Assembly: GCA_000992345.1 (NCBI GenBank)
Contig: LBUA01000001.1
Span: 13,542-77,541 of the forward strand
Source of the DNA: Parcubacteria group bacterium GW2011_GWD2_38_12
GTDB taxonomy: Bacteria; Patescibacteriota; Minisyncoccia; GWC2-36-17
Direction of reading: 5' to 3'
DNA length: 64,000 nt
Below the pieces are notes generated by a model. That model was given only the letters and a program-made list of their open reading frames with translations, had not been told where the DNA came from and searched no databases. Both the position numbers and the translations under genes were made by a program. Positions 6,635-49,916 of the stretch are shown here, one piece after another (positions within the stretch are counted from its first letter, which is position 1; each line of letters opens with the position of its first letter).

Positions 6635-6675
6635 AAACTAAAACCGTCCGCCTAAGGCGGACGGTTTTAGTTTTA
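6634..6675. terminator. Bidirectional rho-independent terminator between convergent genes
   Basis: Perfect hairpin aaaaccgtccgcc-TAAG-ggcggacggtttt flanked by A/T runs on both sides. Confidence 0.8.
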
Positions 6676-7406: not shown

Positions 7407-7715
7407 ATGACAGCAAAAACAGTTGATCAAGAATTTCTTGAATATCTTATCAAATCGATTGTTACCCATCCTGAAGAGGTGAAGGTTGACAGGAAGGTTG
7501 ACGAAATGGGAGTTTTATTAACTCTCAAGGTTAACAAAGAAGACATGGGAACTATTATTGGGCGTGGTGGAGATACTGCAAAAGCCATCAGGAGTTTGGT
7601 GAGAATTGTTGGTTTAAAAAATAATGCCAGAGTTAATTTAAAGATTGAAGAGCCGGAAGGCGGCACTGGCGGTAATTCAAAAAGATCTGCCGATATTGGA
7701 GATCTAGACCTTTAG
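7407..7715 (+). CDS. KH-domain RNA-binding protein (KhpA/YlqC-like, UPF0109)
   Basis: GXXG KH motif [15 protein letters not shown]. Located immediately upstream of trmD, as in the rpsP-khpA-rimM-trmD cluster. Confidence 0.75.
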
Positions 7716-7730
7716 TTTTTCACAAAATAC

Positions 7731-7762
7731 AAAACCCCTCATTTTGAGGGGTTTTGTATTTT
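7731..7762 (+). terminator. Rho-independent terminator
   Basis: aaaacccctc-atttt-gaggggtttt hairpin followed by a T-run. Confidence 0.75.
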
Positions 7763-7779
7763 GTGTTAATGTAAAATTA

Positions 7780-8436
7780 ATGATCAAATTTGATATAATA
7801 ACAATCTTCCCCGAAATTTTCAGCTCGTATTTTGGTAAATCCATTTTAAAGCGCGCGCAGGAGAATGAGTTGATAAAAATCGGCGTTCACGATTTGCGTA
7901 AATTTTCCATTGACAAACACAAAAAAGTGGATGACAAAGCATATGGCGGAGGACCGGGGATGGTGCTCAAAATTGAACCAATTGTTAGAGCAATTGGTTC
8001 AATTTTGAAGTTAAAAGTTAAAAGTAAAAAGTTAAAAGTAAAAAGCAGAGTTATATTATTTTCTACTCGGGGGAAAAAATTCAACAATAAAATTGCCGAA
8101 AAATTGGTAAAATATGATCAATTGATTTTAATTTGCGGTAGATATGAAGGGGTGGACGAGAGGGTAGCCAAATATATTGCCGATGAGGAAATATCCATTG
8201 GAGAGTATGTTTTGACTGGCGGTGAAATTCCGGCGATGGTTTTGGTGGATGCGGTTAGTCGCCATATTCCCGGAGTTTTAGGCAAGCAAGAATCATTAGA
8301 GGAAATAAAGGGATCGTATCCGGTTTATACGCGTCCAGAAGTTTTTGAGATGAGAAATAAAAATTTGCGCGTGCCGAAAGTTTTATTATCCGGCGATCAT
8401 AAAAAAATAGAAGAATGGAGGGAGAAATTTCACTAA
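7780..8436 (+). CDS. trmD: tRNA (guanine37-N1)-methyltransferase TrmD, carrying a Lys-rich insertion from an AAAGTTA heptamer repeat
   Basis: [13 protein letters not shown]-terminus, [16 protein letters not shown] and [11 protein letters not shown] motifs. The annotated ORF start at 7744 overlaps the upstream terminator, so the start is placed at Met 7780. Confidence 0.9.
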
Positions 8437-8564
8437 TTGCAAATTTATCAGTCGTAAATCGCGGATTATTTAATTGACCCCTTAGGAATTGTCTATATTA
8501 TATAAGATTTAAAAATTTATATAGAGTGTTATAATGGTTATAAGAATATTAAAGAATAAATAAA

Positions 8565-10172
8565 ATGCTAAAGTATATCTTTGTTACCGGGGGGGTATGC
8601 TCTGGCCTGGGCAAAGGAATAGCCGCGTCTTCTATCGGCATGCTTTTGAAATCCGCGGGATATAAGGTTGTTATCCAAAAAATGGATCCTTATTTAAATA
8701 TTGATCCCGGGACTATGAATCCGTATCAACATGGCGAGGTTTTTGTGACTCATGACGGCGCGGAGACGGATTTAGACCTTGGGCATTATGAAAGATTTAT
8801 AGACGAAGAACTTTCTGCGATATCTAGTATTTCCACGGGACAAATTTATAGGGATGTTTTGGGGAAGGAAAGAAGCGGAGATTTTTTGGGAAAAACAATT
8901 CAGATAATTCCTCATATCACAAACGCCATCAAAGATTCAATAAGAAAATGTGCTAAAAAATCTAGAGTCGATATTTTAATTTGTGAAATCGGCGGAACAG
9001 TAGGCGATATTGAGGGCGAGCCGTTCCTAGAAGCGGCGCGTCAACTTCATAATGAAGAAGGGCATCACAGCGTGATGTTTATTCATCTAGTACTCTTGCC
9101 GTACCTGAGGAATTCCGATGAATTGAAAACCAAACCCGCTCAAGCATCGGTAAGGGAGCTTCGAAGATCGGGCATTAATGCCGATATTATTTTATGTCGC
9201 GCTGATGAAAAGATAGCGAAAAATCATTTAGAAAAAATCGCTTTATTTTGCGATGTTTCTGTTGCGGCTGTGGTTCCTGCTCCAACGGTAAATTCCATAT
9301 ATGAAGTGCCGGTGAATTTCGAAAATTATAAAATCACTAAACTTATAACCAAACATTTGGATTTGAGTTATAGAAAACCAAATCTTAAAGAATGGAATCG
9401 TTTTATAAAAAAAATTAATTCCAAATTGCCGGTTATTAATATCGCTTTGGTTGGAAAATACATGGAACTTAAGGATGCTTATCTGAGTGTCGCAGAATCC
9501 GTGAAATCAGCCGCTTATTTCAATAATTTTTCCGCAAATCTTGTTTGGATTAATTCTGATAAATTGGAGGCTGATAATAAATTCGCGGAAAAAGAATGGG
9601 ATAAATTGAAAAATGCAAAAGGAGTGATAGTAATGGGCGGATTCGGGAAAAGGGGCATTGAAGGCAAGATTGCAGTTGCAAAATACGCGAGGGAAAACAA
9701 AGTTCCTTATTTGGGAATTTGTCTTGGAATGCAAATAGCCGCGATTGAATTTGCGAGGAATGTTTTGGGATTAAAGAATGCCAATTCAACAGAATTTGAT
9801 AATAAAACCACCCAACCGATTATTTATCTTATGCCTGATCAGCGGGGTATATACAAAAAGGGCGGGACAATGCGACTTGGCGACTATGATTGTATTTTAA
9901 GGGAAGGATCAAAAAGTTTTGCTGCTTATAGAAATAAAAAAATAGTGGAAAGACACAGACACAGGTATGAATTTAATAGTGCGTATGAGAAGAAACTTGA
10001 AGCTAAAGGAATGGTTGTTACCGGCAGAAATCCCAGGAGCGGTCTTTGTGAGATATTGGAAAATATAAATCATCCTTGGTTTGTCGGAGTTCAATTCCAT
10101 CCGGAATTTAAATCACAACCACTCGCGCCACATCCGCTTTTTAGGGAATTTATTAAAGTTTGTGTAAAATAA
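8565..10172 (+). CDS. pyrG: CTP synthase
   Basis: N-terminal FVTGGVCSGLGKG synthase domain and C-terminal glutamine amidotransferase domain (GICLGMQ, HPEF). Confidence 0.95.
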   Translation: MLKYIFVTGGVCSGLGKGIAASSIGMLLKSAGYKVVIQKMDPYLNIDPGTMNPYQHGEVFVTHDGAETDLDLGHYERFIDEELSAISSISTGQIYRDVLGKERSGDFLGKTIQIIPHITNAIKDSIRKCAKKSRVDILICEIGGTVGDIEGEPFLEAARQLHNEEGHHSVMFIHLVLLPYLRNSDELKTKPAQASVRELRRSGINADIILCRADEKIAKNHLEKIALFCDVSVAAVVPAPTVNSIYEVPVNFENYKITKLITKHLDLSYRKPNLKEWNRFIKKINSKLPVINIALVGKYMELKDAYLSVAESVKSAAYFNNFSANLVWINSDKLEADNKFAEKEWDKLKNAKGVIVMGGFGKRGIEGKIAVAKYARENKVPYLGICLGMQIAAIEFARNVLGLKNANSTEFDNKTTQPIIYLMPDQRGIYKKGGTMRLGDYDCILREGSKSFAAYRNKKIVERHRHRYEFNSAYEKKLEAKGMVVTGRNPRSGLCEILENINHPWFVGVQFHPEFKSQPLAPHPLFREFIKVCVK

Positions 10173-10549
10173 TTCAGCATATGTTGAAATTTCTTCTTGG
10201 AGGAATCATATTCGCAACTGGTATTTCATGGGCGTCTTTTGCGGCGATTGTATTTAGCGTTGACCCTAAAGATGTTGGGGGGGTGGGCATCGCGCTTTTT
10301 TATACTAGCTTATTTTTGGGGCTTTCCGGGGTTTTATTTTTATTGATGGCGTATTTGAGAAATAAAAAGCTCAGAATCAATGTAAAAGAGATGATTCATA
10401 ATATTTTTAGGCATTCTATTTTATTATCGGTATTTTTTGTCGGCTTGTTATTTTTGCACCAATCTAATATGCTGAATATTATTTCGGTTGTATGCTTGGC
10501 GGTGTTTACATTGGCTGTAGAAATATATTTTTTAAAAATGAATCAATAA
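10160..10549 (+). CDS. Small hypothetical membrane protein
   Basis: Four predicted TM helices. No recognisable motif. Confidence 0.35.
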   Translation: MCKIIQHMLKFLLGGIIFATGISWASFAAIVFSVDPKDVGGVGIALFYTSLFLGLSGVLFLLMAYLRNKKLRINVKEMIHNIFRHSILLSVFFVGLLFLHQSNMLNIISVVCLAVFTLAVEIYFLKMNQ

Positions 10550-10588
10550 AATCACGCAACATAAAACATCCGGCAAGAGGCAATATAT

Positions 10589-11644
10589 TTGAAACGCTTC
10601 ATGCTTCATATTTTGTGTTTCATGACTGTGATGGATTTACAGCAAAAATTAGAGAATATAAAGAAACTATTTAATCAAAAAATAAGAGATGTAAAAAATC
10701 TTGAAGTTTTGGAAAATTTGCGAGTTCAGTTTTTGGGTAGGAAAAGCGAGTTGGTGGAATTTTTAAAGGGGATTAAAAATTTAACCGAAGAAGAAAAAAG
10801 GAAATTTGGCCCCGTTGCCAATCAATTGAGGCGGGAGATGGAAAAATTAATGGAAGACGCAAAGAAATCGCTTAAAATGCGCGAGGTTGGTAAATTGATG
10901 GAAAAAGATCGTATTGATATTTCTGCTCCAGCCAAAAAAATATCTCAAGGACATTTACACCCATTAACTTTGATACAAAGGAAGATTGAGGATATTTTTC
11001 AGTCTATTGGTTTTGAAGTTGTTGAAGGACCAGAGATAGAGACGGAATACTATAATTTCAATGCCCTAAATATTCCGGCTGATCATCCAGCCAGAGAAAT
11101 GCAAGATACTTTCTGGCTCCAAACTCCAAACTCCAAACTCCAAACTCCAAAGTTACTAATGCGAACACAGACTTCATCTGTTCAGATTAGATACGCGGAA
11201 AATCATCAACCGCCGATTAGAATTATTTCCCCGGGCAGAGTTTTTAGGTTTGAAGCAACTGACCAAACTCACGATATTCAATTTCATCAAATTGAGGGAT
11301 TGATGATTGATAAAAATATTTCCCTTGCCAATCTAAAGGGAGTTTTGGAAATTTTATTTAAAAAGCTTTATGGCAAAGGAGTGGAGGTTCGTTTTAGGCC
11401 CAGTTACTTTCCCTTTGTGGAGCCGGGAGTGGAGGTAGATATGAAATTCAGAGGAAAGTGGATGGAAATTGCGGGCGCCGGAATGGTGCATCCGAAAGTT
11501 TTAAATACCATGAAAATAGATAGTCGCATTTGGCAGGGATTTGCTTTCGGTATGGGGCTTGAGAGATTGGCAATAATTAAATATGGGATTGATGATGTGA
11601 GACTGTTTTCATCGGGAGATTTGAGATTTCTGAAACAGTTTTAA
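10589..11644 (+). CDS. pheS: Phenylalanine--tRNA ligase alpha subunit, with an in-frame ACTCCAA heptamer-repeat insertion
   Basis: Class II aaRS motifs (FRPSYFPFVEPG, GAGMVHP, GMGLERL). The insert reads LQTPNSKLQTPK. Confidence 0.9.
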   Translation: MKRFMLHILCFMTVMDLQQKLENIKKLFNQKIRDVKNLEVLENLRVQFLGRKSELVEFLKGIKNLTEEEKRKFGPVANQLRREMEKLMEDAKKSLKMREVGKLMEKDRIDISAPAKKISQGHLHPLTLIQRKIEDIFQSIGFEVVEGPEIETEYYNFNALNIPADHPAREMQDTFWLQTPNSKLQTPKLLMRTQTSSVQIRYAENHQPPIRIISPGRVFRFEATDQTHDIQFHQIEGLMIDKNISLANLKGVLEILFKKLYGKGVEVRFRPSYFPFVEPGVEVDMKFRGKWMEIAGAGMVHPKVLNTMKIDSRIWQGFAFGMGLERLAIIKYGIDDVRLFSSGDLRFLKQF

Positions 11645-11668
11645 TCAAACGCTGATTGGCGCGGAATT

Positions 11669-12079
11669 ATGGAAGAATTTAAAAAAACTTTAGGACATGG
11701 AAAAGAAGAAGAACATTCTCCCGAAGATTTAAGAAGAGAGATAGTGGAGATGATAGCAAAAATAAAAAAAGAAAACCCGAACGATCCCCATCTTATTAAT
11801 ATAAATACAGAAAATATTAAAGAAGAAGATAGGGAGATACAAAAAAGATATGAGCAACTCTTAAATAAAGGACTGACGTTGACCGAAGAGGAGTATAATG
11901 AATTTTTTAATGAATTTGTCATATATAGAAATAAGGTTTTTAAAGAAATTGAAGAGAAAAAGACACATTCAAGTCGCTTAGACTTTGTTGGTTATTTGGG
12001 AAATAAAATAGCAGGGAAAATTTATGTTCCCTGTAGGAAAAATTGGCCAAATAAAGGGGAGAGACCATTAAAACCATGA
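11669..12079 (+). CDS. Hypothetical highly charged (Glu/Lys-rich) protein between pheS and pheT. Its stop overlaps the pheT start (ATGA).
   Basis: ORF only. No recognisable motifs. Confidence 0.35.
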   Translation: MEEFKKTLGHGKEEEHSPEDLRREIVEMIAKIKKENPNDPHLININTENIKEEDREIQKRYEQLLNKGLTLTEEEYNEFFNEFVIYRNKVFKEIEEKKTHSSRLDFVGYLGNKIAGKIYVPCRKNWPNKGERPLKP

Positions 12080-14637
12080 AAATCTCATATAATTGGTTAA
12101 AAGATTTCGTGAACCTAAAAAGATATTCGGCTCCAGAGCTAGCGGATTTATTGACCATGAACTTTGCGGAAGTCGATGGGATTAAAACGCTTGGCGATGA
12201 TTTGATTTTTGATTTGAAAATTTTACCAGATAGAGCTTCGGATTGCCTGTCGCATTATGGAGTGGCGCGTGAGTTAGCTGCGCTAACAAAGTTAAAAGTT
12301 AAAAGTTTAAAGTTTAAAGTTAAAGAAAGTAAAAAAATAAATATAAAAGATTTGATAGAAGTTGAAAATCAAAATCCGGAGATTTGTAAAAGATATATTT
12401 CGCGAGTAATTTTGGATGTTAAGGTCGGGGCTTCTCCGAAATGGTTGAAAGAGAGACTTGAATCATTGGGTCAAAAATCTATAAATAATGTAGTGGACGC
12501 GACAAATTATGTGATGTTGGAACTGGGGCAACCGATGCATATTTTTGATTTTGATAAAATCAAAAATATGCAAGTTAAAAGTGAAAAGTCCATGCCTACC
12601 GGCAGGCAGGTAAAAGCGCAAAGTGAAATTTCAAAAATTATAATCCGAAAAGCAAAAGTCGGAGAAAAGATAACAACCCTAGATAATCAAGAAATAGAAC
12701 TAAATGAAGATGTTCTTGTAATTGTCGGCTCTGATACTCCAAACTCCAAACTCCAAACTCCAAGCTCTATTCTGGCAATTGCTGGCATAAAAGGCGGAAA
12801 GAAAGCGGAAATAGATCAAAATACCAAAAATATTATTTTGGAATCAGCGAATTTCAGCGCAGAGGCAATACGCAAAGCTTCAAAACTGACTGGAATAAGA
12901 ACAGAGTCTTCTGCCAGGTTTTCCGCTGATTTAGATCCTAATCTAGCGGGTATTGCTATTGAAAGATTGGCATCTTTATTGGTTCAAATTGCTGGAGGGG
13001 AAGCAGTTAGCGGGAAAATAGACATTTATCCACGCAAGGTTATGAGTGCGAAAGTTGCTGTTTCTTTGAATGACGTTATAAGTTTATTGGGAGAGAAAAT
13101 ATCCGAAAAAGAATTTTTGAGTATTTTTAAACAGCTAAACTTTAAGGTAGAAAAGATTTATCAAGAGAAAGAATTAATGAAATTGGCAAGGAAATTTATT
13201 GGCAGGCCATACAAATATGGGGCAAGCACAAGTCAAGATGCTCCCGAAACATTTGATTGCTCCAGTTTTGTTCAATATTTATATTGGCAAATTGGCATTG
13301 AGATTCCCAGAATTTCAGTTGAGCAGTTTTTATTTGCGCGTTCCATTGAAAAGAAAGATTTGAAAATTGGCGATCTGGCTTTTAGAAAAGGAGGAAGGCC
13401 ATATTTCTATAAAGAAACTCCAAGGGGTATTGGACATGTGGGGGTTTATATCGGGAAAGGCAGGGTTGTCCATGCATCCGGAGACAAAAAGAAAGTAATC
13501 GAAGAAAAATTAGAAACATTTTGCAAGAAAGACTTTCGCGGATTTGGAAGAATAGCTGATTTAGGGGATGAGGCTTTTGTCATCGAAATCCCCACATATA
13601 GGAGAGATATCAGAATGAAAGCTGATATTATTGAAGAGATTGGCCGGATTTACGGTTATCAAAATATAAAATCAAAATTGCCTGAAGGTATTCTGATGCT
13701 GCCTCAAAGAAATGATGAGATTTTTTGGGAAAATTTATCAAAAAACGCTTTAGTATCCACTGGATTTACTGAAGTTTATAACTACTCTTTTATCGGTGGA
13801 AAAGATTTAAAGGCGGGTTTTATTATTCCTGAAAATATTTTAGAACTTCAAAATTATATTAGCGATGACAAAAGATATTTGCGACCAAGCTTGATTTTTG
13901 GTTTTCTAAGAAATATCGAAGAAAATTTCAGGTATTTTAATGAGACGCGCATATTTGAAGTTGGCAAAATTTTCACCCTTAATGCAAAAGAAAAAATTTC
14001 TGAGAGAAAGTTTATTGGCGGGGCCATTTCCCTTAAAGGGAAAAGAAATAGCGCAAAAGCTGAGGAATTTTATGAATTAAAAGCCACCGTTGATTTATTG
14101 ATGCAGAAATTGGGTGTGCCGGAATTTTGGTATGATGATTATCAGGCCACGCCCGAGATCATTGAAGGAAAAATTTGGCACCATTTGCGTTTAGCGGAAA
14201 TTAAAATAGGTGACGAGAGAGTCGGATTTATTGGAGAAATAAATCCGAATGTCATTGGAAATTATGATATAGACGGAAGAGTGGCGATGTTTGAAATTGA
14301 TTTTGAAAAATTAGCGTGTCTCGCTAACGAAGATTTTATTTATAGTCCTATATCAAAATTCCCAGCCATAGAAAGAGATTTGGCGATACTTACTCCCATT
14401 AATGTGAAAGTTGATGATGTTTTAAATGTCCTGGAAAATATAGGCGGCCAGTTGCTCATAAATACGGATTTATTTGATGTTTATGAAGGCGATAATATTC
14501 AGGAGGGTAAAAAGAGTTTGGCCTTCCATTTGATATTCCAGTCGCGGGAAAGAACTTTATCCGATAAGGAAGTGGATGAAATTTTAGCCGAAATAATCGT
14601 TGCTTTATCCGAGGAGGGTTGGGAAATTAGAAGATAG
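12076..14637 (+). CDS. pheT: Phenylalanine--tRNA ligase beta subunit that lacks the N-terminal OB (B2) domain and carries an inserted NlpC/P60 domain plus two heptamer-repeat insertions
   Basis: MKISYNWLKDFV N-terminus, B3/4, a B5 motif pair (FKVEKI ... IPTYRRDIRMKADIIEEIGRIYGYQNI) and an FDX-ACB C-terminus. The NlpC/P60 block (RPYKYG, FDCSSFVQY, GHVGVYIG, VHAS) is embedded inside B5. Confidence 0.9.
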   Translation: MKISYNWLKDFVNLKRYSAPELADLLTMNFAEVDGIKTLGDDLIFDLKILPDRASDCLSHYGVARELAALTKLKVKSLKFKVKESKKINIKDLIEVENQNPEICKRYISRVILDVKVGASPKWLKERLESLGQKSINNVVDATNYVMLELGQPMHIFDFDKIKNMQVKSEKSMPTGRQVKAQSEISKIIIRKAKVGEKITTLDNQEIELNEDVLVIVGSDTPNSKLQTPSSILAIAGIKGGKKAEIDQNTKNIILESANFSAEAIRKASKLTGIRTESSARFSADLDPNLAGIAIERLASLLVQIAGGEAVSGKIDIYPRKVMSAKVAVSLNDVISLLGEKISEKEFLSIFKQLNFKVEKIYQEKELMKLARKFIGRPYKYGASTSQDAPETFDCSSFVQYLYWQIGIEIPRISVEQFLFARSIEKKDLKIGDLAFRKGGRPYFYKETPRGIGHVGVYIGKGRVVHASGDKKKVIEEKLETFCKKDFRGFGRIADLGDEAFVIEIPTYRRDIRMKADIIEEIGRIYGYQNIKSKLPEGILMLPQRNDEIFWENLSKNALVSTGFTEVYNYSFIGGKDLKAGFIIPENILELQNYISDDKRYLRPSLIFGFLRNIEENFRYFNETRIFEVGKIFTLNAKEKISERKFIGGAISLKGKRNSAKAEEFYELKATVDLLMQKLGVPEFWYDDYQATPEIIEGKIWHHLRLAEIKIGDERVGFIGEINPNVIGNYDIDGRVAMFEIDFEKLACLANEDFIYSPISKFPAIERDLAILTPINVKVDDVLNVLENIGGQLLINTDLFDVYEGDNIQEGKKSLAFHLIFQSRERTLSDKEVDEILAEIIVALSEEGWEIRR

Positions 14638-17003: not shown

Positions 17004-17567
17004 ATGCAAAACACAAAACACAAAACACAAAATAAAATTATACCTCAAAAATTTTTTGAAAAGCCAACATTGGAAGTGACGGAGAATTTACTTGGGAAAT
17101 ATTTGGTTAGAAAAACAGGTGGTAAGACGATTGCTGGAATAATAACGGAACTGGAAGCATATGTTGGTGAAACTGATTTAGCGTGTCACGCCGCAAAAGG
17201 GCGAACAAAAAGGACAGAGATTATGTATCAAGATGCCGGAACTCTGTATGTTTATATGATTTACGGGATGTTTTATTGTTTGAATGTCGTGACCGAGAAA
17301 AAAGATTTTCCTTCGGCAATATTGATACGGGCAGTAAAAGTAGACGGTATTGATTTTATGGCGACAAGTGGTCCGGGGAAATTATGTAAAATTTTAAAAA
17401 TAGATCGCAAATTCAACGGGTTGAAATTAGGCAAGAAAAGCGGACTTTGGATAGAAGATAGGGGGATAAAAATAAAAAAATCACAAATTATAAAAAGCAA
17501 AAGAATAGGGGTTGATTATGCCGGACATTGTAAAGATTATTTGTGGAGGTTTTCTATTAAAATTTAA
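17004..17567 (+). CDS. mpg: DNA-3-methyladenine glycosylase (Mpg/AAG family); N-terminus encoded by a CAAAACA heptamer repeat
   Basis: TELEAYVGETDLACHA, YVYMIYGMFYCLNVV and GPGKLCK motifs of the AAG fold. Confidence 0.8.
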   Translation: MQNTKHKTQNKIIPQKFFEKPTLEVTENLLGKYLVRKTGGKTIAGIITELEAYVGETDLACHAAKGRTKRTEIMYQDAGTLYVYMIYGMFYCLNVVTEKKDFPSAILIRAVKVDGIDFMATSGPGKLCKILKIDRKFNGLKLGKKSGLWIEDRGIKIKKSQIIKSKRIGVDYAGHCKDYLWRFSIKI

Positions 17568-18584: not shown

Positions 18585-19862
18585 TTGGAGCATTCCGGCA
18601 AATTTTTAATAAAAGGTGGAAGAAAGCTGAGCGGCGAGATTGATATAATGGGCAGCAAAAATGCGGCAACACCGATATTGGCTGCGACATTGTTGACGAG
18701 TGAAGAATGTATTATCGATAACATCCCTTTGATTGAAGATGTATTTAGATTGATTGAAATTTTAAAACACCTTGGCGCAGAAGCTGATTTTATTGGTAAG
18801 AGAAAATTGAAAATAAGAGCAAGAAACATAGACGTAGGTAGATTAAATAATGCAGGCGTTGGCAAATTAAGATCCTCGGTTTTATTGATGGGGCCGCTTC
18901 TCGCTAGATTCAGGAAAATTCAAACCAAAAATCCGGGAGGATGTCTTATCGGTAATCGTCCGCTTGATACTCATCTTGAGGCATTTGTTGATTTAGGAGC
19001 CAAGATTGCGCCAAATGGCAACAATCTTGATATAATTTTAAAAAATAAACCCAAAGATGAAATAGTGCTTAAAGAATTTTCCGTAACTGCGACGGAAAAT
19101 GTCTTAATGTTTGCTTCATTGATGCCACAAAGAACAATTATAAAAATAGCCGCAATGGAGCCACATGTACGAGATTTAATAAAATTTTTACGCGCCATGG
19201 GCGTAAAAATAAAATTATTAGACAGTCATACCATTGAAGTAGTGGGAGTAAAAAAACTTCGCGGCGCAAAGCATAAAATTATTCCGGATCAAATAGAGGC
19301 GGGAACGTTTTTAATAATTGGAGCTTTGATAGGCAGTGATATTTTAGTAAAAAATTGCAGAATAGATCATTTGGATTTAATTTTAAAAAAGTTGAAAGAA
19401 TTTAATATTGATTATAAGTTTGAAAAGCGAAGGGGAAATTTTGCCGATATTAGAATTAAGACAAATTATCCATTAAGAGCGGCAAAGGTTCAGGCGATGC
19501 CATATCCGGGAATTCCTACGGATTTGCAATCAATCTTTGGTGTCTTAGCCACTCAAGCGCAGGGGACAAGCATGATTCATGACCCATTATTTGAAGGAAG
19601 ATTCAAATATCTGGATGAGCTTGTGAAAATGGGTGCTAATGTTGTTGTCTGCGATCCGCACAGAGCATTAATTACCGGTCGGACTCAGCTTCAAGGAACT
19701 AATATAACAAGTTATGATTTACGCGCGGGAGCGTCTTTGATTATTGCAGGCTTGATTGCTAGCGGAGAAACTGTTATAAATGACGCATATCAAGTGGATA
19801 GAGGATATGAAAGGATAGAAGAAAGGTTGCAGAAGTTGGGAGCGGACATAACCAGAATTTAG
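18585..19862 (+). CDS. murA: UDP-N-acetylglucosamine 1-carboxyvinyltransferase (TTG start likely)
   Basis: KFLIKGGRKLSGEIDIMGSKNAATPIL, GNRPLDTHL, and a C-terminal DRGYERIEERL segment that aligns with the E. coli MurA C-terminus. Confidence 0.9.
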   Translation: MEHSGKFLIKGGRKLSGEIDIMGSKNAATPILAATLLTSEECIIDNIPLIEDVFRLIEILKHLGAEADFIGKRKLKIRARNIDVGRLNNAGVGKLRSSVLLMGPLLARFRKIQTKNPGGCLIGNRPLDTHLEAFVDLGAKIAPNGNNLDIILKNKPKDEIVLKEFSVTATENVLMFASLMPQRTIIKIAAMEPHVRDLIKFLRAMGVKIKLLDSHTIEVVGVKKLRGAKHKIIPDQIEAGTFLIIGALIGSDILVKNCRIDHLDLILKKLKEFNIDYKFEKRRGNFADIRIKTNYPLRAAKVQAMPYPGIPTDLQSIFGVLATQAQGTSMIHDPLFEGRFKYLDELVKMGANVVVCDPHRALITGRTQLQGTNITSYDLRAGASLIIAGLIASGETVINDAYQVDRGYERIEERLQKLGADITRI

Positions 19863-19936
19863 AATTTTGAATTTAGAATTTAACGGTATTTAAAACTTAT
19901 ATTCTAAATACTACATTTTATAATTCTTTCAAGAAC

Positions 19937-23435: not shown

Positions 23436-24587
23436 TTGCGAGTTGACACTTTTATTTTTGTCAATCGTCAATCGTCAATTGTCAATCGTTTTTTGAAAGT
23501 AGCAATTTCATTAATTATTATTTTTCTTATTTTAGGCGCTATTTTGTTTTTTGCAGTTCCTTTTTTGTTGCAAAATATTTCTTTTCCCGGATTTTCGTCT
23601 AGTGGCTCAGGCATTGCCGGAATTTTCAAGACCATTGATGGGGGCGATTTTTGGTTTTCAAAAAATAATATTGAATCTTCAAAGTCAACGATTGGATCCG
23701 CAAATATTTTGGATTTAGTTCTTGACCCTTTTGATAATAATATTATGTATGCGGGTACTAATGGCGCCGGGATTCTTAAAAGCATAAATAATGGCGAGAG
23801 CTGGAAACGATTAGTTGATGACAATAACTTATTGGCATCTAGCGCGGTTATCAATCAAATTGCGATTAACCCTCGTGACCCCGCTCATATTTTTATTGCC
23901 GCTTTTCAGGGAGGCAGTGGCGGCATTTTTAAAACAGAAGATGCGGGACGTAGTTGGAAGCAGCTTTACATCGTTCCGTTGGCGAAACAAGACATTAAGA
24001 CGTTGGTGATTGATCCTTTAAATCCTAATTTTCTTTATGCTGGCACTACGGCTGGAGGGTTTTTGGTCAGTTCTGACGGGGGGGAGTCATGGAGAGCGCT
24101 TAAATGGTTTTTCGACCCGATAAAGAAGATTGTAATAAATCCGTTTTCATCGGCAGAGCTTTTTTTGGTTCTTGAAAACAGGGGGTTTTATAAGACGGCC
24201 GATAGGGGAGAGAACTGGAAAGATTTAACCCATACTTTTTCTGGCTATCCGTCGGCTATTAGAGTAGAGAATATTGTTTTAGATCCTCAAAGACCCAACG
24301 TTTTGTATATGACTTCCATGTATGGATTATTGAAATCTACTGATGGCGGAAATAGCTGGAGGTCGCTTAAAATTTTAGTGTCGCCCGAGACTCTGCCCGT
24401 GCAAGACATCGCAATTGATAGAAATAATTATAAGATGATTTATATAAGTGCAGGATCTAAGATTTATATTTCTAATGATGAGGGAGAGAATTGGACTGTA
24501 AAAAGTTTAAATACCGGAAAAAACGCGAAGCTAATTAGGATAGATTATAAAAATCCAAAAGTAATTTTTGTGGGGATACATAAATAA
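23436..24587 (+). CDS. Membrane-anchored BNR/Asp-box repeat beta-propeller protein (Ycf48/sortilin-like). Start codon uncertain (TTG).
   Basis: N-terminal TM helix, then six or more S-x-D-x-G-x-(S/T)-W Asp-box repeats (NNGESW, DAGRSW, DGGESW, DRGENW, DGGNSW, DEGENW). Confidence 0.7.
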   Translation: MRVDTFIFVNRQSSIVNRFLKVAISLIIIFLILGAILFFAVPFLLQNISFPGFSSSGSGIAGIFKTIDGGDFWFSKNNIESSKSTIGSANILDLVLDPFDNNIMYAGTNGAGILKSINNGESWKRLVDDNNLLASSAVINQIAINPRDPAHIFIAAFQGGSGGIFKTEDAGRSWKQLYIVPLAKQDIKTLVIDPLNPNFLYAGTTAGGFLVSSDGGESWRALKWFFDPIKKIVINPFSSAELFLVLENRGFYKTADRGENWKDLTHTFSGYPSAIRVENIVLDPQRPNVLYMTSMYGLLKSTDGGNSWRSLKILVSPETLPVQDIAIDRNNYKMIYISAGSKIYISNDEGENWTVKSLNTGKNAKLIRIDYKNPKVIFVGIHK

Positions 24588-25316: not shown

Positions 25317-26399
25317 ATGCTCACTTTTATTATTTTTATATTAGTTCTTGGCGTTTTGGTGGTTGTCCATGAATTCGGGCATTTTTGGATTGCGCGTAGA
25401 AATGGTGTTCGCGTTGATGAGTTTGGTTTTGGTTTTCCGCCAAAACTTTTGGGCATTAAAAGAGGCGAGACATTATATTCTTTCAATGCCTTGCCACTTG
25501 GCGGATTTGTAAAAATTTTCGGAGAAGATATGGAAGAGGGGAAAGATGATCCGCGAAGTTTTGCGACTAAAAGCGTTGGAGCAAGATTTCGTATTATCGT
25601 TGCGGGAGTGGTGATGAATTTTATTTTAGCCGTTGTTTTATTTTCTTTCGGGTCTGCTATTGGTTTGCCCAGCGCCATAGACGGGTCTAACGAAAAATAT
25701 GCCCGTGATATCAGTGTGCAGATTATTGGTGTAGCAAAAAATTCGCCGGCGGAATTATCAGGGATTAAGATGGGGGATAAGATTTTGGAAGTTGGAGGTT
25801 GGAAGTTGGAAGTTGGAGACAGCCAAATTGAAAAAATTCAGAAAGTAATAAGCGAAAACAAGGGGCAAGAAATAATTATCACTGTTCAAAGAAAAGATGA
25901 AATTTTGAATATCAAAACAATTCCAAGGGTTGAAATTCCGAAAGACGAAGGGGCGTTAGGCATTGCGATGGCCAAAGTCGGTATAGTTGCCTATCCAGTT
26001 TACCTGGCGCCAATTAAGGGGGTGGAAGCGGCTTTTGGCGTCGGAATAAATTTTATTCACTCAGTCTATTCAATATTTAATATATGGATTACTGACGGAA
26101 GAATGATAGGAGACATTGCCGGCCCGGTGGGAATTTTCACTTTAACCGGACAAGCCGCGCGACTTGGATTTATTTATCTTCTGCAATTTGTCGCGATGCT
26201 TTCTGTTAATCTGGCGATTATTAACGCTGTTCCTTTTCCGGCGCTTGACGGAGGAAGATTATTATTTTTAGGGTTGGAAAAAATAAAGGGTTCGCCGATA
26301 AGCATTAAATGGGAAAAATACGCCCATATTATCGGTTTCGCGATTTTAATTTTATTGATCTTATTGATTACATATAAAGATGTAAGGAGAATGTTTTAG
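25317..26399 (+). CDS. rseP: RIP metalloprotease RseP (site-2 protease) with a PDZ domain; carries a GAAGTTG heptamer-derived insert
   Basis: HEFGHF zinc motif in TM1, a PDZ domain, and the C-terminal LDGG motif (NAVPFPALDGGR). Confidence 0.85.
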   Translation: MLTFIIFILVLGVLVVVHEFGHFWIARRNGVRVDEFGFGFPPKLLGIKRGETLYSFNALPLGGFVKIFGEDMEEGKDDPRSFATKSVGARFRIIVAGVVMNFILAVVLFSFGSAIGLPSAIDGSNEKYARDISVQIIGVAKNSPAELSGIKMGDKILEVGGWKLEVGDSQIEKIQKVISENKGQEIIITVQRKDEILNIKTIPRVEIPKDEGALGIAMAKVGIVAYPVYLAPIKGVEAAFGVGINFIHSVYSIFNIWITDGRMIGDIAGPVGIFTLTGQAARLGFIYLLQFVAMLSVNLAIINAVPFPALDGGRLLFLGLEKIKGSPISIKWEKYAHIIGFAILILLILLITYKDVRRMF

Positions 26400-32133: not shown

Positions 32134-32202
32134 ATTCGCTATTCGCTAATCGCTATTCGCTAATCGTTTTTTATGATTTGCGTTTTGCATTTTGCGTTTT
32201 GC
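32134..32202. repeat. Intergenic tandem repeats (ATTCGCTA/ATCGCTA units, then GCGTTTTGCATTTTGCGTTTTGC)
   Basis: Direct reading of attcgctattcgctaatcgctattcgctaatcg ... gatttgcgttttgcattttgcgttttgc. Confidence 0.8.
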
Positions 32203-32213
32203 TTTTTAGCAAG

Positions 32214-35848: not shown

Positions 35849-35906
35849 CTTTTAGATTCTATTTAAGAAGTTAACAATTAACAATTAACAATTAATAGCT
35901 AATTCA

Positions 35907-37184: not shown

Positions 37185-37190
37185 TCATAA

Positions 37191-37224
37191 CATTTGACGT
37201 CTGACATTTGACGCCTGACATTTT
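37191..37224. repeat. Intergenic tandem repeat CATTTGACG(T/C)CTGA x2.5
   Basis: catttgacgtctgacatttgacgcctgacatttt. Confidence 0.8.
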
Positions 37225-39365: not shown

Positions 39366-40541
39366 CTAATATTTTATCTTAATAAAATCATTATATAATT
39401 TTTCGTATTCTAAGACAATATTTTCAATAGCGTATTTTTGAGCCGCTTTTTGGGAGTTTTCCGACATTTTTTGTCTTAAGGTCGGGTTTTCTATTAATTT
39501 GGTTATCTCTTTTGAGAGTTCGATAAAGCTGTACCTTTCCGTTATGAGACCGGTTGTTCCATGTTCTACATATTCATCGATTGGGGATTTGGCGACAATT
39601 TGCGGCAGGCCTAGAGCCATTGCCTCAAATATCGGCAAGGGCTGATTTTCGGTATCTGATGCGGTAATAAAAATATCATTTGCAGCCACGGCATCGATGA
39701 AATTTTGGTCTATCAACATGCCAAAAAATATGACCTTGTCTCTAATGTTTAATCTTTTCGCGAATTTTTCAAGATTTTTTCTCTCCGGTCCATCGCCAAT
39801 TAAGGAAAGTTTTATTTTGGGATATTTTGGCGAAAGAAGCGCAAAAACTTTCAAGAGTTCATGGATTCTTTTCTCGTAGGTAATTTTTCCGAAATAAACT
39901 AAAGAAAATTCTGGCAAACCACAACGTTTTTTTAGTATATCTTTTTGCGCTGATGGTTTAAATTTAGAAATATCTATTGAGTTGGGAATAATAGAAACTG
40001 GAGCAGTAAGACCGTTTTTGATAAGATTCTCCGCAATGGTTTTTGACGGTACAATGACTATTTTACAGGAGTTATAAAATTTAACAATTTCTTTTTTAAG
40101 GAGGAATTCCGAAAGAAATGATCGACTTTTTATTATATGTTCTATATAGTTGGCATAAAAAGTATGGTGGGATCCGATTAGGGGAAGTTTTAAGATGCGA
40201 GCGACTTTTCGCGCTTCGTGGCCGGCGAAAAAGGGCGTATGAGCATGAATAACATCGGGATTTAATGAAAGAATATCCCGAAAGCCGGGGTTTATGGGAT
40301 GGAAGATATTTTTCAGATTAAAATATTCGTTTTTTGCTCTGTAGATTTCTATAAGTTGCGGTTTTTCAAAGTCGTTATCTATATTATTCTCTGATGATTG
40401 GTTTGTGAAAATAGAAACATTGTGGCCGTGATTTGCAAGTTCGTGGCTTAATGTTTGGAGAGAAACAGAAATACTGTTTATGTCCGGAAGAAAAGTGTCG
40501 GAAAAAAAGGAGATACGCATAAAATATGAAACATGTAACAT
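39366..40541 (-). CDS. Glycosyltransferase family 4
   Basis: GT-B fold. C-terminal region FITASDTENQPLPIFEAMALGLPQIV (E-x7-E). Confidence 0.8.
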   Translation of the reverse strand: MLHVSYFMRISFFSDTFLPDINSISVSLQTLSHELANHGHNVSIFTNQSSENNIDNDFEKPQLIEIYRAKNEYFNLKNIFHPINPGFRDILSLNPDVIHAHTPFFAGHEARKVARILKLPLIGSHHTFYANYIEHIIKSRSFLSEFLLKKEIVKFYNSCKIVIVPSKTIAENLIKNGLTAPVSIIPNSIDISKFKPSAQKDILKKRCGLPEFSLVYFGKITYEKRIHELLKVFALLSPKYPKIKLSLIGDGPERKNLEKFAKRLNIRDKVIFFGMLIDQNFIDAVAANDIFITASDTENQPLPIFEAMALGLPQIVAKSPIDEYVEHGTTGLITERYSFIELSKEITKLIENPTLRQKMSENSQKAAQKYAIENIVLEYEKLYNDFIKIKY

Positions 40542-40582
40542 GAAATATGTAATCCGCCGTGGCGGACTTCATGATTCATGAG

Positions 40583-42442: not shown

Positions 42443-42521
42443 AAAACATGAATCAATTTTTAAAAATACGAATTTTAATTATTGAATGTATGTCGCGTGC
42501 TTCATGTTGTATGTTGCGTGA

Positions 42522-44192: not shown

Positions 44193-44284
44193 GATGGCAA
44201 TTAGATAGATTTTATATTTATGAGTTTTGATAAATTGTATATTTAAGTGATCAAGCGATCTTATAAATTATATCAAATTAATCC

Positions 44285-44773
44285 GTGGAAAACCATAAAG
44301 ATAAAAAGAAGGAGATTCCAGCTTTTATGGAAACAAATTCAGTGCAAAGTTTAGAGGCGCAACCAAAAACTCAGCTTCACGAAGAAATCGCCGAACTTGA
44401 AAAAAATTTAGAAGAGAAAAAGCGTTTGGCGGGAATATCAGGCGTTGAGATTCCTTACGAAAAAGAGGTTTTTAAGGATGTTATTAAAGAGCATATCTCT
44501 CAAAAAAGAGAGCAGATTTTGTCTTCTCTACCGCCTTCACAAGCGCAGGCACAACAGGCACAAGTGGCAGATGACGCGCAAAAATTAAAAGAATTGACCG
44601 AGCAGAAACAGCTTGAGGAGTTAATAGGTATTGCTCATAAAAAAAGTCCGATTGCCGCGGCGCATATTGCCGAACATATGAAAAATCCCAGATTACTTGA
44701 TAGCTTTCATGATTATTTGACTGATCAATTGTATGATTATTTAGTAAAAACCAGAAAATTAAGAGAACTTTAA
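44285..44773 (+). CDS. Hypothetical coiled-coil protein
   Basis: ORF only. Gln/Ala-rich low-complexity centre. Confidence 0.35.
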   Translation: MENHKDKKKEIPAFMETNSVQSLEAQPKTQLHEEIAELEKNLEEKKRLAGISGVEIPYEKEVFKDVIKEHISQKREQILSSLPPSQAQAQQAQVADDAQKLKELTEQKQLEELIGIAHKKSPIAAAHIAEHMKNPRLLDSFHDYLTDQLYDYLVKTRKLREL

Positions 44774-44852
44774 GTTAGCTATTCCAGTGGTTCAGCTATT
44801 TTAGCGGTTTAGCTTCGGCTATACTGCTATACCGCCATACCGCTTACCGCCC

Positions 44853-47303: not shown

Positions 47304-47306
47304 CAA

Positions 47307-48023: not shown

Positions 48024-48034
48024 GGGCTTTATTA

Positions 48035-48684: not shown

Positions 48685-48766
48685 TTATAGATTTATAACA
48701 CACAGAGCATGCAGCATGAAGTCCGCCGCGGCGGATTCATGTTTCATGTCTCATGTTTTATGTTGC

Positions 48767-49882: not shown

Positions 49883-49884
49883 TT

Positions 49885-49912
49885 TTCTAGCTTCTAGCTT
49901 CTAGCTTCTAGC
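49885..49912. repeat. TTCTAGC heptamer x4 tandem repeat immediately upstream of tRNA-Gln
   Basis: ttctagcttctagcttctagcttctagc. Confidence 0.85.
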
Positions 49913-49916
49913 TTTT

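Follow-up and report, generated by a model that had tools for sequence, protein, structure and literature searches.

DNA-copying errors appear to create and rewrite the short seven-base repeats of a Parcubacteria lineage

In the 64 kb window, by which we mean the whole stretch of DNA that was analysed, from an ultra-small bacterium of the Patescibacteria (CPR), and at related loci, DNA-copying errors appear to create and rewrite short seven-base repeats. The arrays originate and evolve at the level of DNA, and their units are linked by single substitutions that have spread to all copies, which is concerted evolution. We consider it probable that they are products of slippage and template switching, filtered by selection within a lineage-wide population of short heptamer SSRs, a function of the arrays not being required. 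They are best read as a variant of the heptamer-SSR phenomenon already known from bacteria.

TRF detected 28 period-7 arrays in the window, compared to 3.35 in Markov-3 simulations. Clear arrays with at least 3.6 copies occur about once per 3 kb, and these approximately 21 arrays comprise at least 15 unit types, about half of the arrays being intergenic. Besides three AAAGTTA-type arrays in trmD, pheT and dnaX, about 18 more reach 3.6 copies by TRF. Arrays outside the loci that are treated in detail below are:

17007-17032: perfect CAAAACA array, 3.7 copies, at the 5' end of the methylpurine-DNA-glycosylase ORF
19854-19882: AGAATTT array, 4.1 copies, across the stop codon of an EPSP-synthase-family gene, upstream of mreB
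23460-23489: GTCAATC array, 4.3 copies, at the 5' end of the BNR-repeat protein ORF
25785-25817, plus strand: TTGGAAG array, 4.7 copies, in the M50 peptidase/PDZ gene, encoding LEVGGWKLEVG
32134-32207: two adjacent arrays, ATTCGCT (4.7 copies) and TTTGCGT (4.4 copies), upstream of greA
35871-35895: perfect TTAACAA array, 3.6 copies, intergenic, upstream of serS
37190-37223: alternating ACATTTG/ACGCCTG array with period 14, 2.4 copies, intergenic between serS and an ftsQ-like gene
43821-43902: inverted array pair (TRF), TGAATTA with 4.3 copies (43821-43850) and AATTCAT with 4.7 copies (43870-43902)
47325-47355: degenerate GTCAAAA array, 4.3 copies, at the 5' end of the GtrA-family ORF

Period 7 was also the commonest tandem period in 160 related loci, with a mode at 30-32 nt or approximately 4.4 copies. 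In two independent locus sets, it accounted for 107 arrays across the 1.2 Mb surrounding trmD and for 52 across the 0.84 Mb surrounding dnaX, whereas periods 6 and 8-11 were represented by 2-23 arrays in both sets. Classified by open frames only, the 122 arrays of the window and the trmD locus set comprise 57 non-coding arrays, 23 at ORF edges and 42 clearly within long ORFs; by this classification, intergenic arrays are enriched relative to the small intergenic fraction, yet the coding share is large. About one third of the arrays occupy recurrent hot spots in conserved essential genes, where they are in frame. Stop-containing units were more frequent in non-coding than in other arrays (76% vs 40%), a comparison that we discarded as circular given the definition of 'non-coding'. 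Arrays of the same genome shared unit classes in 16 pairs compared to 3.3 expected, which was significant only over all loci and hints at either copying between sites or a sequence preference. Seeding from abundant 7-mers was rejected: the AAAAGTT class ranks 105th among 1172 outside arrays, and since other 7-mers are more common in the genome than the units, abundant words fail to explain which units occur. Units of the TAACTGA class (AACTGAT) were present in two loci (L008 and L019), and an Rfam search returned tRNA as the sole match. A quantum of 21 nt, or three units, in all arrays was suggested by the first locus set, in which lengths of 40-49 nt were missing and arrays clustered at 50-56 nt; arrays of 41, 46 and 46 nt in the second set then closed the gap, and the idea was left as weak.

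The three arrays that the preliminary description had singled out are:

8008-8045, plus strand: AAGTTAA array in trmD, 5.4 copies, 90% matches (TRF), encoding a 13-residue peptide
12288-12324, plus strand: AAAGTTA array in pheT, in the linker preceding the B3/4 domain, 5.3 copies, 93% matches, encoding KLKVKSLKFKVKESKK (listed among the parts as KLKVKSLKFKVKE)
48960-48991, plus strand: AACTTTT array in dnaX, the reverse complement of AAAAGTT, 4.6 copies, 92% matches, encoding LLTFNFKLSTD

Heptamer arrays of the AAAGTTA type in trmD, pheT and, reverse-complemented, dnaX were confirmed, and so was their nature as DNA-level repeats within intact essential genes. Their reported positions needed only minor correction, as the 3' ends had been set a few bases too far and the dnaX string contained one surplus t. 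Each of the three carries a substitution exactly at the in-frame TAA, namely T>A in trmD, where AGT TAA of the perfect repeat became AGT AAA, A>T in pheT (AGT TTA) and T>A in dnaX (AAC TTT AAA). The pattern AAAGTTAAAAGTTA with up to two mismatches had 16 matches compared to 2.9 expected, and 16 matches were reached in none of 100 shuffles. Nevertheless, we rejected the triple as a significant recurrence for the window alone: the AAAAGTT class accounts for three of the 15 high-scoring arrays, no single unit dominates, and such sharing does not reach significance when compared to the pooled distribution of units (P=0.21). The proposed colonisation of core informational genes by one simple-sequence family is not supported, given the many unit types and the intergenic half of the arrays, and it would also not be recent, as the arrays in trmD and at the first pheT site are old and common to distant relatives.

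That the arrays add length applies to trmD and dnaX, where the loops are longer, but not to the pheT 12288 array, whose segment is as long as in the orthologues. Between GGGxGM and GRYEGxDER, TrmD has 73 amino acids compared to 65-66 in orthologues without the array, and the insert amounts to +8 amino acids relative to S. aureus TrmD in the PDB alignment. The corresponding DnaX segment comprises 39 amino acids, compared to 30 or 32 in 62 of 117 orthologues, i.e. +7 amino acids (21 nt, three units) over the 32-residue form. It had been placed between the Walker A motif and the zinc module, whereas the alignment locates it inside the module, between its first and second Cys, flanked by the equivalents of Cys64 and Cys73 of E. 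coli gamma. Mapping onto structures, as had been suggested, yielded gaps in the PDB alignments at the TrmD and DnaX inserts, and the AF2 model places the TrmD array in the loop that connects helix 66-78 with strand 90-101.

Nor are the orthologous segments identical Lys-rich stretches without heptamer periodicity; they are Lys-rich, but as heptamer arrays with other units. In the TrmD loop, the arrays of 15 genomes start at a common nucleotide and have about four units each, many of them perfectly repeated. Most of their units form a series by one- or two-base changes (AAGTTAA, AAGTCAA, AAGTGAA, AAATCAA, AAATCCA, GAAATCC, AAAAACC, AAAACCT), from which four others are more distant (ATTTCCA, AATCAAG, AACAAGA, GCAAAGC). 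The encoded peptides differ completely between genomes, while the DNA remains a heptamer array. Likewise, the arrays in the DnaX zinc-module loop consist of different units in different genomes, and those at the pheT 12288 site have other units in L163-L165. At all of these orthologous sites the unit differs between genomes and the copies within one array are alike.

The pheS and pheT genes, which we compared by protein searches and contig look-ups, contain further arrays; gene order around them is not conserved among the trmD loci.

11117-11151, plus strand: perfect CTCCAAA array, 5.0 copies, in pheS after the conserved DTFW motif, encoding QTPNSKLQTPK
12536-12610, plus strand: third hot spot of pheT with hairpin, array and quasi-palindrome (sequence analysis)
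12736-12767, plus strand: ACTCCAA array, 4.6 copies, in pheT, encoding TPNSKLQTPS

The 12736 array forms a unique insert of +10 amino acids with a 5-nt direct repeat (GCTCT) at both flanks and has unit, frame and peptide in common with the pheS array 1.6 kb away.

Near-identical strains separate coding from non-coding arrays. The following features around dnaX and one related element are relevant here:

40518-40583, minus strand: second composite of CATGAAG, TCCGCCACGGCGGA and a TTCATGT-type array, immediately preceding the start codon of a gene for a GT4 glycosyltransferase
48700-48769, plus strand: composite of CATGAAG, the GC hairpin TCCGCCGCGGCGGA and a TTCATGT array of 4.9 copies (48736-48769), directly before the dnaX start codon
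49885-49914, plus strand: perfect TTCTAGC array, 4.3 copies, between the dnaX stop codon and tRNA-Gln

The claim that coding arrays are frozen holds at the strain level, as the arrays in trmD, pheS (11117) and pheT are unchanged in a 99.3%-identical strain (L081) and the dnaX coding array is identical in a second strain (L170); in total, five ORF arrays did not differ between near-identical strains. Single-unit changes, which had been considered incompatible with essential genes, are indeed absent from coding arrays between strains but occur where the frame imposes no constraint. Compared to positions 42373-51152 of the window, L170 has 0 substitutions in 8.8 kb and lacks exactly 48744-48750, one 7-nt unit of the dnaX leader array. 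The start of dnaX is miscalled upstream of this polymorphic array. In the spacer between dnaX and the tRNA, the window has 4.3 copies compared to 2.3 in L169, and L168 contains four copies of TTTTAGC instead of TTCTAGC, a further concerted unit change.

A subset of the arrays adjoins inverted repeats. Perfect hairpins of 17-18 bp are found at the TrmD site and at the third PheT site, with right arms that are reverse-complement copies of upstream coding sequence:

7967-8008, plus strand: perfect 18-bp hairpin with a 6-nt loop in the trmD coding sequence, ending at the start of the array

Its left arm encodes the conserved L-K-I-E-P-I-V and its right arm the lineage-specific A-I-G-S-I-L; across genomes the arm sequence is read in different frames (I-G-S-I-L vs V-Q-F-L). 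The third pheT site comprises, in this order, a perfect 17-bp hairpin (12536-12572) with the conserved M-H-I-F-D-F encoded in its left arm, a degenerate array of AAGTTAA and AAGTGAA units (12571-12588) and a quasi-palindrome rich in GC (12589-12610), and this whole segment is absent from array-less orthologues. Homologous trmD hairpins with compensated arm changes were found in L002, L003, L009, L020, L021, L024, L025, L056 and L082, and the hairpin-plus-array layout of pheT with co-varying arms recurs in L163, L164 and L165. Covariation of the arms across genomes was supported by permutation of ungapped own-arm versus cross-arm complementarity (P<1e-4). All base pairs of the arms at both sites are Watson-Crick pairs and none is a G-U pair, and in L002, L024, L009, L056 and L163-L165 the arms changed together, overriding codons and protein sequence. 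Hairpins as a general companion of arrays were rejected, as they flank only about 7% of arrays compared to 2.3% of control positions. The association of hairpin and array in trmD may be partly phylogenetic.

With the preferred explanation by copying errors, replication slippage or misaligned re-annealing on 7-nt repeats would create, resize and re-homogenise the arrays, and intramolecular template switching, by snap-back or quasi-palindrome correction, would make the adjoining inverted repeats and keep them perfect. Over-representation of heptamer SSRs in many bacteria, with polymerase slippage as proposed cause, is described in PMC4692102 (citing Mrazek et al. 2007), and template switching homogenises inverted-repeat arms in coding DNA (PMC8604942, PMC5941160). 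Purifying selection would act as a filter: arrays could build up in intergenic DNA, and inside genes their survival would be confined to surface loops that permit insertions and to net lengths divisible by three, +7 codons or three units being common. As consecutive copies of a 7-nt unit fall into all three reading frames, only arrays whose total length keeps the frame and contains no stop survive; coding arrays would need units that lack stop codons whichever frame is used, or else a point substitution to remove the one in-frame stop. Among 58 coding arrays, 38 have stop-free units, 19 of these being perfect, while 20 have stop-containing units and include a single perfect array of only 21 nt. 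The A-rich coding strand would give rise to peptides rich in Lys, Asn and Ser, which may be tolerated by loops close to surfaces that bind tRNA or DNA. The typical product would be an array of four full units plus a few bases (30-32 nt). However, stepwise slippage alone predicts a monotonic fall in the number of arrays with copy number, and the preference for approximately 4.4 copies runs against this prediction.

Alternatively, the arrays, alone or together with hairpins, could be functional cis-elements at the RNA or DNA level, either as sites in 7-nt register for a putative multi-domain single-strand binder (S1, Csp or KH type) or as spacers for translation or transcription at start codons, a role that has been suggested for the TAACTGA repeats of Beggiatoaceae. 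We regard this as rather unlikely. A role at gene borders would fit the many arrays located directly at start or stop codons, the presence of arrays with unrelated units upstream of dnaX in three of five relatives and the position of both copies of the hairpin-plus-array composite before a start codon in the window, but the composite, the only one with multiple copies (two), precedes dnaX and a glycosyltransferase gene. As these genes are functionally unrelated, shared regulation by the composite was rejected. A preference for about four units regardless of coding status and the TAACTGA repeats of Beggiatoaceae as a precedent (PMC4679880) are also in line with a function, whereas the diversity of units, both within one genome and at orthologous sites, makes a sequence-specific binder unlikely, arrays are found in both orientations and in the middle of ORFs, and copy number varies between identical strains. 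Compensatory change maintains the hairpin arms, but their exclusive Watson-Crick pairing fits DNA templating better than selection for RNA structure.

A further alternative is that a hypothetical writer enzyme dedicated to this task, or some mobile or templated mechanism, deposits arrays of about four 7-nt units, often beside a fold-back copy of the flank. Candidates would be a templated-insertion polymerase acting at breaks or nicks (snap-back with reiterated loop-out synthesis, as in end joining of the polymerase-theta type) or a short-template reverse transcriptase. Perfect period-7 arrays have a sharp peak at 29-32 nt that is absent for periods 5, 6 and 8-11, and the preferred size is the same in coding and non-coding arrays; a writer would account for this fixed size and for genome-specific unit families. 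The sharing of units within genomes, the anatomy of the trmD site and of the third pheT site, with the upstream reverse-complement copy preceding direct repeats, and the pheT 12736 insert with its flanking direct repeat and the unit of the nearby pheS array point in the same direction. Such a writer is quite improbable, however, since the single-unit polymorphism in L170 and the two-unit difference in L169 represent ordinary stepwise change, the units at orthologous sites are related by descent instead of originating from a common template, and a four-unit mode is also known from the GGGAATC repeats of Xanthomonas (PMC4692102) and is not lineage-specific. In its broader form, that Patescibacteria and possibly many bacteria have a specific DNA transaction that writes about four 7-nt units, often at the base of a fold-back, and rewrites existing sites, the idea is unlikely as well. 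If true, the transaction would be an intrinsic source of loop insertions for essential proteins, the constant array size would result from the geometry of an enzyme or intermediate and not from G-quadruplex formation or selection, and the long-noted excess of heptamer SSRs in bacteria would be explained too.

It is highly improbable that selection for Lys-rich or amphipathic loops in tRNA- or DNA-binding proteins generated the arrays, with nucleotide periodicity as a by-product of a repeated peptide and codon bias. The orthologous TrmD loops and PheT linkers are nearly all Lys-rich, the PheT linker is constant in length and retains a K-h-K-h pattern in orthologues with 45-52% identity, and coding arrays encode 20% Lys. 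In contrast, a 7-nt period runs through three different frames and yields no matching amino-acid repeat, and synonymous-codon resampling never or almost never attained the period-7 score of the real sequence (P<=5e-4 in each of the six coding arrays that were resampled), indicating that the signal exceeds what the encoded peptides force. Moreover, about half of all arrays are non-coding, the dnaX peptide LLTFNFKLST is hydrophobic, and peptides at one site change wholly between genomes while the heptamer array stays. Chance or an assembly artefact, conceivable because all sequences stem from metagenome assemblies and short repeats are prone to mis-assembly, can practically be dismissed in view of the shuffle and Markov controls, the fact that assemblies produced independently from other samples and sources (L081 from ENA, L170 from JGI) have identical arrays, and the open frames that arrays leave in conserved essential genes of dozens of MAGs published by unrelated studies. 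The source samples besides that of the window are ENA ERZ27254731 and JGI 3300025010.

Heptamer repeats have been noted to be in excess in bacterial genomes since 2007, and we know of no tested explanation. The present lineage offers an unusually clean comparative system: its genomes are many and small, its arrays occupy fixed and alignable positions in universal genes, their units can be seen to evolve in concert, identical strains differ by a single unit, and there is a physical link to template-switch hairpins. It illustrates that a frame-breaking 7-nt repeat can still remodel loops of essential proteins such as TrmD, PheRS and the clamp loader. This is relevant for lineage-specific insertions in CPR proteins, for marker-gene alignment and phylogeny, and for gene calling at array-bearing 5' ends, as in dnaX. 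If the four-unit size is mechanistic, it questions the G-quadruplex rationale for four-unit heptamer arrays elsewhere. A literature search for heptamer or tandem repeats in Patescibacteria yielded nothing relevant.

Among known repeat systems, REP- or MITE-like elements are conserved, have their own termini and occur at many sites; here, the left hairpin arms are native coding sequence and the units differ by site. Phase-variable contingency loci of Haemophilus, Neisseria and Campylobacter share a unit that is not a multiple of three and changes in unit number by slippage, and one leader array described here is similarly polymorphic by one unit between identical strains. Their hosts, however, are surface, restriction-modification and virulence genes, whereas the arrays reported here reside in essential housekeeping genes, the hosts being trmD, pheS, pheT, dnaX and the M50 protease gene, and the ORF arrays, short and frequently interrupted, do not vary between strains. 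They do not represent a switch, because the gene-off state would be lethal. The tandem repeats of Borgs (PMC9879509) are likewise A-enriched, mostly perfect and specific to certain genomes, with an inferred local origin, and about half of them are located in ORFs, where they add low-complexity, likely disordered segments. In contrast to the frame-shifting 7-nt units, Borg ORF repeats have units divisible by three that encode perfect amino-acid repeats and occur in more copies.

TAACTGA repeats of Beggiatoaceae, cyanobacteria and Bacteroidetes (PMC4679880) and cyanobacterial STRR are also heptamers, with 2-6 copies, located mostly just 5' of start codons. Occasional TAACTGA arrays in ORFs encode parts of the protein periphery, with stop codons in forward orientation limiting their placement, and horizontal transfer or a specific binding protein was suggested (PMC4679880). 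These systems have a single conserved unit per genome or lineage, whereas many units with turnover at fixed sites were found here, and the window lacks the one dominant unit that characterises TAACTGA, STRR and GGGAATC families. With quasi-palindrome template switching and homogenisation of inverted-repeat arms (PMC7202029, PMC8604942, PMC5941160), the hairpins share perfect inverted repeats in coding sequence, arms that change together and multinucleotide changes that override the protein sequence; in our search of the template-switch literature, a hairpin physically coupled to a heptamer array at one site in many genomes was not found.

The heptanucleotide LSSRs, such as GGGAATC in Xanthomonas and GGGGA(C/T)T in Nostoc (Mrazek, Guo & Shah 2007, as summarised in PMC4692102), have several features in common with the arrays reported here: head-to-tail 7-nt units, a unique excess of period 7 among periods 4-11, mostly about four units, variation in length and sequence between related genomes, seen here as differences in unit number in L170 and L169, inverted array pairs and slippage as proposed origin. 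In LSSR genomes, one G-rich unit family dominates, unlike in the window, arrays are essentially intergenic, and the four-unit size is rationalised by G-quadruplex formation, which is impossible for the A/T-rich and very diverse units found here. The arrays of this lineage further differ from LSSRs in that about one third are in-frame in essential genes and some adjoin co-varying hairpins.

Heptamer repeats of the AAAGTTA type are present, head to tail, in all three genes in which the preliminary description had reported them, and the peptides assigned to them were right:

8008-8045, trmD: AAGTTAA, 5.4 copies, in an ORF matching solved TrmD structures (E=2e-53)
12288-12324, pheT: AAAGTTA, 5.3 copies, in a PheT homologue with the Pfam domains B3_4, B5, tRNA_synthFbeta and FDX-ACB
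48960-48991, dnaX: AACTTTT (reverse complement of AAAAGTT), 4.6 copies, in a DnaX homologue (E. coli gamma/tau, E=2e-71)

The coordinates first reported were slightly too long, and the third string contained one surplus t. Matches to AAAGTTAAAAGTTA with at most two mismatches were observed 16 times against 2.9 expected, a number reached in 0 of 100 shuffles. When synonymous codons were re-drawn, the observed period-7 score was almost never reached (P<=5e-4 for matches beyond peptide constraint at each of six coding arrays), indicating that it is the DNA, and not the peptide, that is periodic. The arrays are in-frame DNA repeats frozen inside genes, commonly as three additional units, as had been suggested. 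That informational genes are the target of a particular AAAGTTA family was not borne out, because many other units occur across the window and about half of the arrays are intergenic or at gene ends.

In total, TRF detected 28 period-7 arrays in the window compared to 3.35 in Markov-3 simulations, and about 21 of the 28 have 3.6–5.4 copies. Their units include CTCCAAA in pheS (11117, five perfect copies) and pheT (12736), TTGGAAG in an M50 protease gene, and CAAAACA, AGAATTT, GTCAATC, ATTCGCT, TTTGCGT, TTAACAA, TGAATTA/AATTCAT, TTCATGT, TTCTAGC and others; the arrays at 43821-43902 form an inverted pair. GC skew is positive in all 4 kb bins of the window (1-64000), so that cumulative skew climbs monotonically, and the + strand carries almost every long ORF, the exceptions being those at 38.3–44.2 kb and a few near the window end; the window probably lies inside a single replichore. 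The host belongs to the Patescibacteria (CPR), with Paceibacteria-type MAGs as best named relatives. The 80 loci taken from around trmD in GTDB species representatives (1.2 Mb) contain 107 period-7 arrays, by far the most of any tandem period; period 6 has 7 arrays and periods 8–11 have 12–23. Period 7 ranked first once more, with 52 arrays compared to 38 for period 12, in 0.84 Mb of metagenomic sequence made up of another 80 loci, these around dnaX. Array length has a sharp mode at 30–32 nt in coding and non-coding arrays alike, and perfect period-7 arrays form a distinct peak at 29–32 nt that is absent for periods 5, 6 and 8–11. Period-7 arrays were also seen in five loci from outside the Patescibacteria (L062, L069, L071, L072 and L073; Omnitrophota and unclassified MAGs). 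In L072 one of them is (AATAGTG)17, 123 nt long, and in L062 the position of the TrmD loop is occupied by the G-rich (AGGGAGG)7.7.

In TrmD, the spacing from GGGxGM to GRYEGxDER is 65–66 residues in array-less proteins, mostly 69–78 in array-bearing ones and 73 in the window. The insert is an alignment gap relative to solved structures, and AlphaFold2 (mean pLDDT of the model 74) places it in the loop that joins helix 66–78 to strand 90–101, with locally lower confidence. In 15 genomes the arrays start at a common nucleotide just 3' of a conserved Leu codon and comprise about four full units, which are AAGTTAA in the window and the related loci L082 and L009, AAGTCAA/AAATCCA in L001, AAGTGAA in L003, AAATCAA in L020, L025 and L021, GAAATCC in L002, AAAAACC in L008, AAAACCT in L026, and ATTTCCA, AATCAAG, AACAAGA and GCAAAGC in other genomes. 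Most of these units are one or two base changes apart, each change is found in every copy of its array, and some arrays repeat their unit with 100% identity. The pattern is that of an old array under concerted evolution and not of one family colonising the site repeatedly.

The DnaX segment from GKT (Walker A) to the Cys cluster has 30 or 32 residues in 62 of 117 relatives and 39 in the window. Relatives at 74–78% identity also have 39 residues, with different heptamer units (GCTNANA-type, GTTGTCA, and AAATTGA in which TGA has become TGT), and the closest relative (89% identity) has a wholly different, longer insert. The insert had been placed between Walker A and the zinc module, but the alignment puts it in the module, flanked by the residues that correspond to Cys64 and Cys73 of E. 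coli. In the same loop of the metagenomic locus L087 the repeated unit is 8 nt long (CTCAGCCA/CTCAGTCA) and not a heptamer; with four copies, the total is again about 32 nt.

The pheT array at 12288 had also been regarded as an insertion, but its segment is as long as in orthologues; repeats at this site in the comparison loci are AAAGTTA/AAAGTGA (L165), AAACTCA (L164) and ACGAATT-type (L163). The array at 12736 is a unique insert of +10 residues, and at a third site (PheT residues 162–190) array-type peptides occur in many orthologues and are missing from others. The CTCCAAA arrays in pheS (11105-11151) and pheT (12725-12790) have the unit, the frame and the peptide TPNSKLQTP in common, both have GATACT and TTCTGGC motifs in their flanks, and the pheT insert is bordered by a GCTCT direct repeat; ectopic templating between these sites, 1.6 kb apart, may have occurred. 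PheT additionally carries an NlpC/P60 peptidase domain (13201-13530, residues 376–485; PF00877, E=7e-19) inserted between B3/4 and B5, and PF00877 is also found in the Patescibacteria PheT relatives P0243, P0260, P0282, P0291, P0301, P0317 and P0342.

Perfect inverted repeats adjoin arrays in two of these genes:

7967-8008, trmD: 18-bp inverted repeat with a 6-nt loop, its 3' end being the exact array start
12536-12572, pheT: 17-bp inverted repeat followed by a degenerate array

The left arms are conserved coding sequence (LKIEPIV in trmD, MHIFDF in pheT), the right arms lineage-specific insert sequence. Homologous trmD hairpins occur in nine other array-bearing genomes and in none of the array-less trmD genes, and differences in the left arm are matched by complementary differences in the right arm (GAGCC/GGCTC in L002, AAAGTTGAG/CTCAACTTT in L024, AAACTTGAG/CTCAAGTTT in L009, AAAATCGA/TCGATTTT in L056). 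In the window the trmD right arm GGTTCAATTTT encodes G-S-I-L, and in L003 and L025 it is translated in a different frame, to V-Q-F-L, so that its conservation is at the nucleotide and not the protein level. Complementarity to the own arm exceeded cross-genome pairing (permutation P<1e-4), and four PheT hairpins behaved alike. The arms carry the hallmark of template switching within one molecule (quasi-palindrome correction), a process of mutation that has been described before (PMC7202029, PMC8604942, PMC5941160) and that is here physically linked to heptamer arrays. Over all arrays this link is limited, since a perfect stem of 9 bp or more lies beside 7% of arrays and 2.3% of control positions. 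A composite of CATGAAG, the GC hairpin TCCGCCnnnGGCGGA and a TTCATGT-type array occurs in two copies, directly before the start codons of dnaX and a glycosyltransferase gene.

Other hairpin-forming elements were observed as well. Short GC-rich palindromes (TCCGCC-N2-4-GGCGGA and similar) are a second small-insert type, found in the window at 12589-12610, 40553-40566 and 48722-48735 and, among relatives, in the dnaX insert of L169, TrmD proteins P0004 and P0038 and PheT proteins P0255, P0256 and P0258. They occupy intergenic leaders and, in relatives, the same protein loops as heptamer arrays, where they encode, for instance, NPPAGG, NPPVGGEGG, PTGRQ and SASGG. In the dnaX relatives L166 (both sides of dnaX) and L167 (downstream), a hairpin element resembling REP or CRISPR repeats, GTCATTCCCGCG(A/C)AAGCGGGAATCCAG, lies at positions of the window's heptamer arrays. 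A perfect 17–18 bp hairpin between convergent genes (6636-6672, AAAACTAAAACCGTCCGCC-TAA-GGCGGACGGTTTTAGTTTT), with two heptamer-like units inside its stem, looks like a bidirectional terminator.

Two conspecific assemblies allowed a comparison between strains. In L081 (ENA; 99.3% identity over 7656-14202) the trmD, pheS and two pheT arrays are unchanged, and the sole indel is an intergenic 26-nt TTTTACGCTGATTGGCGCGGAAATAT missing from the window at 11666, between pheS and the next ORF. L170 (JGI) has zero substitutions and one indel relative to 42373-51152, namely the loss of one heptamer unit (48744-48750) from the TTCATGT array immediately 5' of the dnaX start codon. Thus, unit number outside ORFs outpaces point substitution, whereas ORF arrays are constant. 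This polymorphic leader array lies downstream of the start of the longest dnaX ORF (GTG 48656) and also of the start called in the database gene (388 aa); as the one-unit indel shifts the upstream frame, ATG 48767, overlapping the last repeat unit, is most likely the true start. In the dnaX–tRNA-Gln spacer, the array counts 4.3 copies in the window but 2.3 in the relative of 89% identity, and a relative of 76% identity has (TTTTAGC)4, with a one-base change in each unit.

A perfect heptamer array traverses all three frames every 21 nt. Among 58 arrays inside long ORFs, 38 have units that are stop-free in all coding-strand frames, and half of these are perfect, compared to only one, of just 21 nt, among the 20 with stop-containing units. 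All three AAAGTTA arrays carry a substitution exactly where TAA would be in frame (AGT-TAA to AGT-AAA in trmD, AGT-TAA to AGT-TTA in pheT, TTT-TAA to TTT-AAA in dnaX). The coding strand of coding arrays is 48% A, and Lys makes up 20% of the encoded residues.

A mutational origin combined with a selective filter is the best-supported explanation. Slippage on 7-nt repeats would create, resize and re-homogenise arrays, template switching would make and perfect the adjoining inverted repeats, and selection would leave them between genes and in those protein loops that tolerate them, there with in-frame length and free of stops. Three observations are not accounted for in this way: arrays of about four units are favoured in coding and non-coding DNA alike, unit classes recur within a genome beyond chance (16 pairs where 3.3 are expected), and the units are not the genome's commonest 7-mers. 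They keep alive a possible cis-acting function near start codons, by analogy with the role proposed for TAACTGA repeats (PMC4679880), and likewise a dedicated process of templated insertion. An origin through selection on the protein is contradicted by the change of frame between successive heptamers and by the synonymous re-drawing (P<=5e-4), and chance or assembly artefact is excluded by the shuffle and simulation controls and the independent assemblies.

Heptamer SSRs had already been described as over-represented in bacteria, with slippage as hypothesis and a four-unit mode in Xanthomonas, in the part of PMC4692102 that cites Mrazek et al. 2007. We found no paper describing such arrays in the searchable literature, which is itself incomplete. 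The window arrays show the defining features of heptamer LSSRs. They differ from contingency loci in that their hosts are essential genes and the ORF arrays lack polymorphism, from single-unit families such as TAACTGA (PMC4679880) and cyanobacterial STRRs, from Borg-type amino-acid repeats, whose units in ORFs are always divisible by three (PMC9879509), and from mobile miniature elements. Four aspects appear to be new. The arrays are set in Patescibacteria, with A/T-rich and highly diverse units; they often sit in frame inside universal essential genes, where hot spots recur; their concerted evolution at these hot spots is documented; and they are coupled to hairpins. The arrays are of moderate to high interest because they render the old question of heptamer excess testable by comparison.
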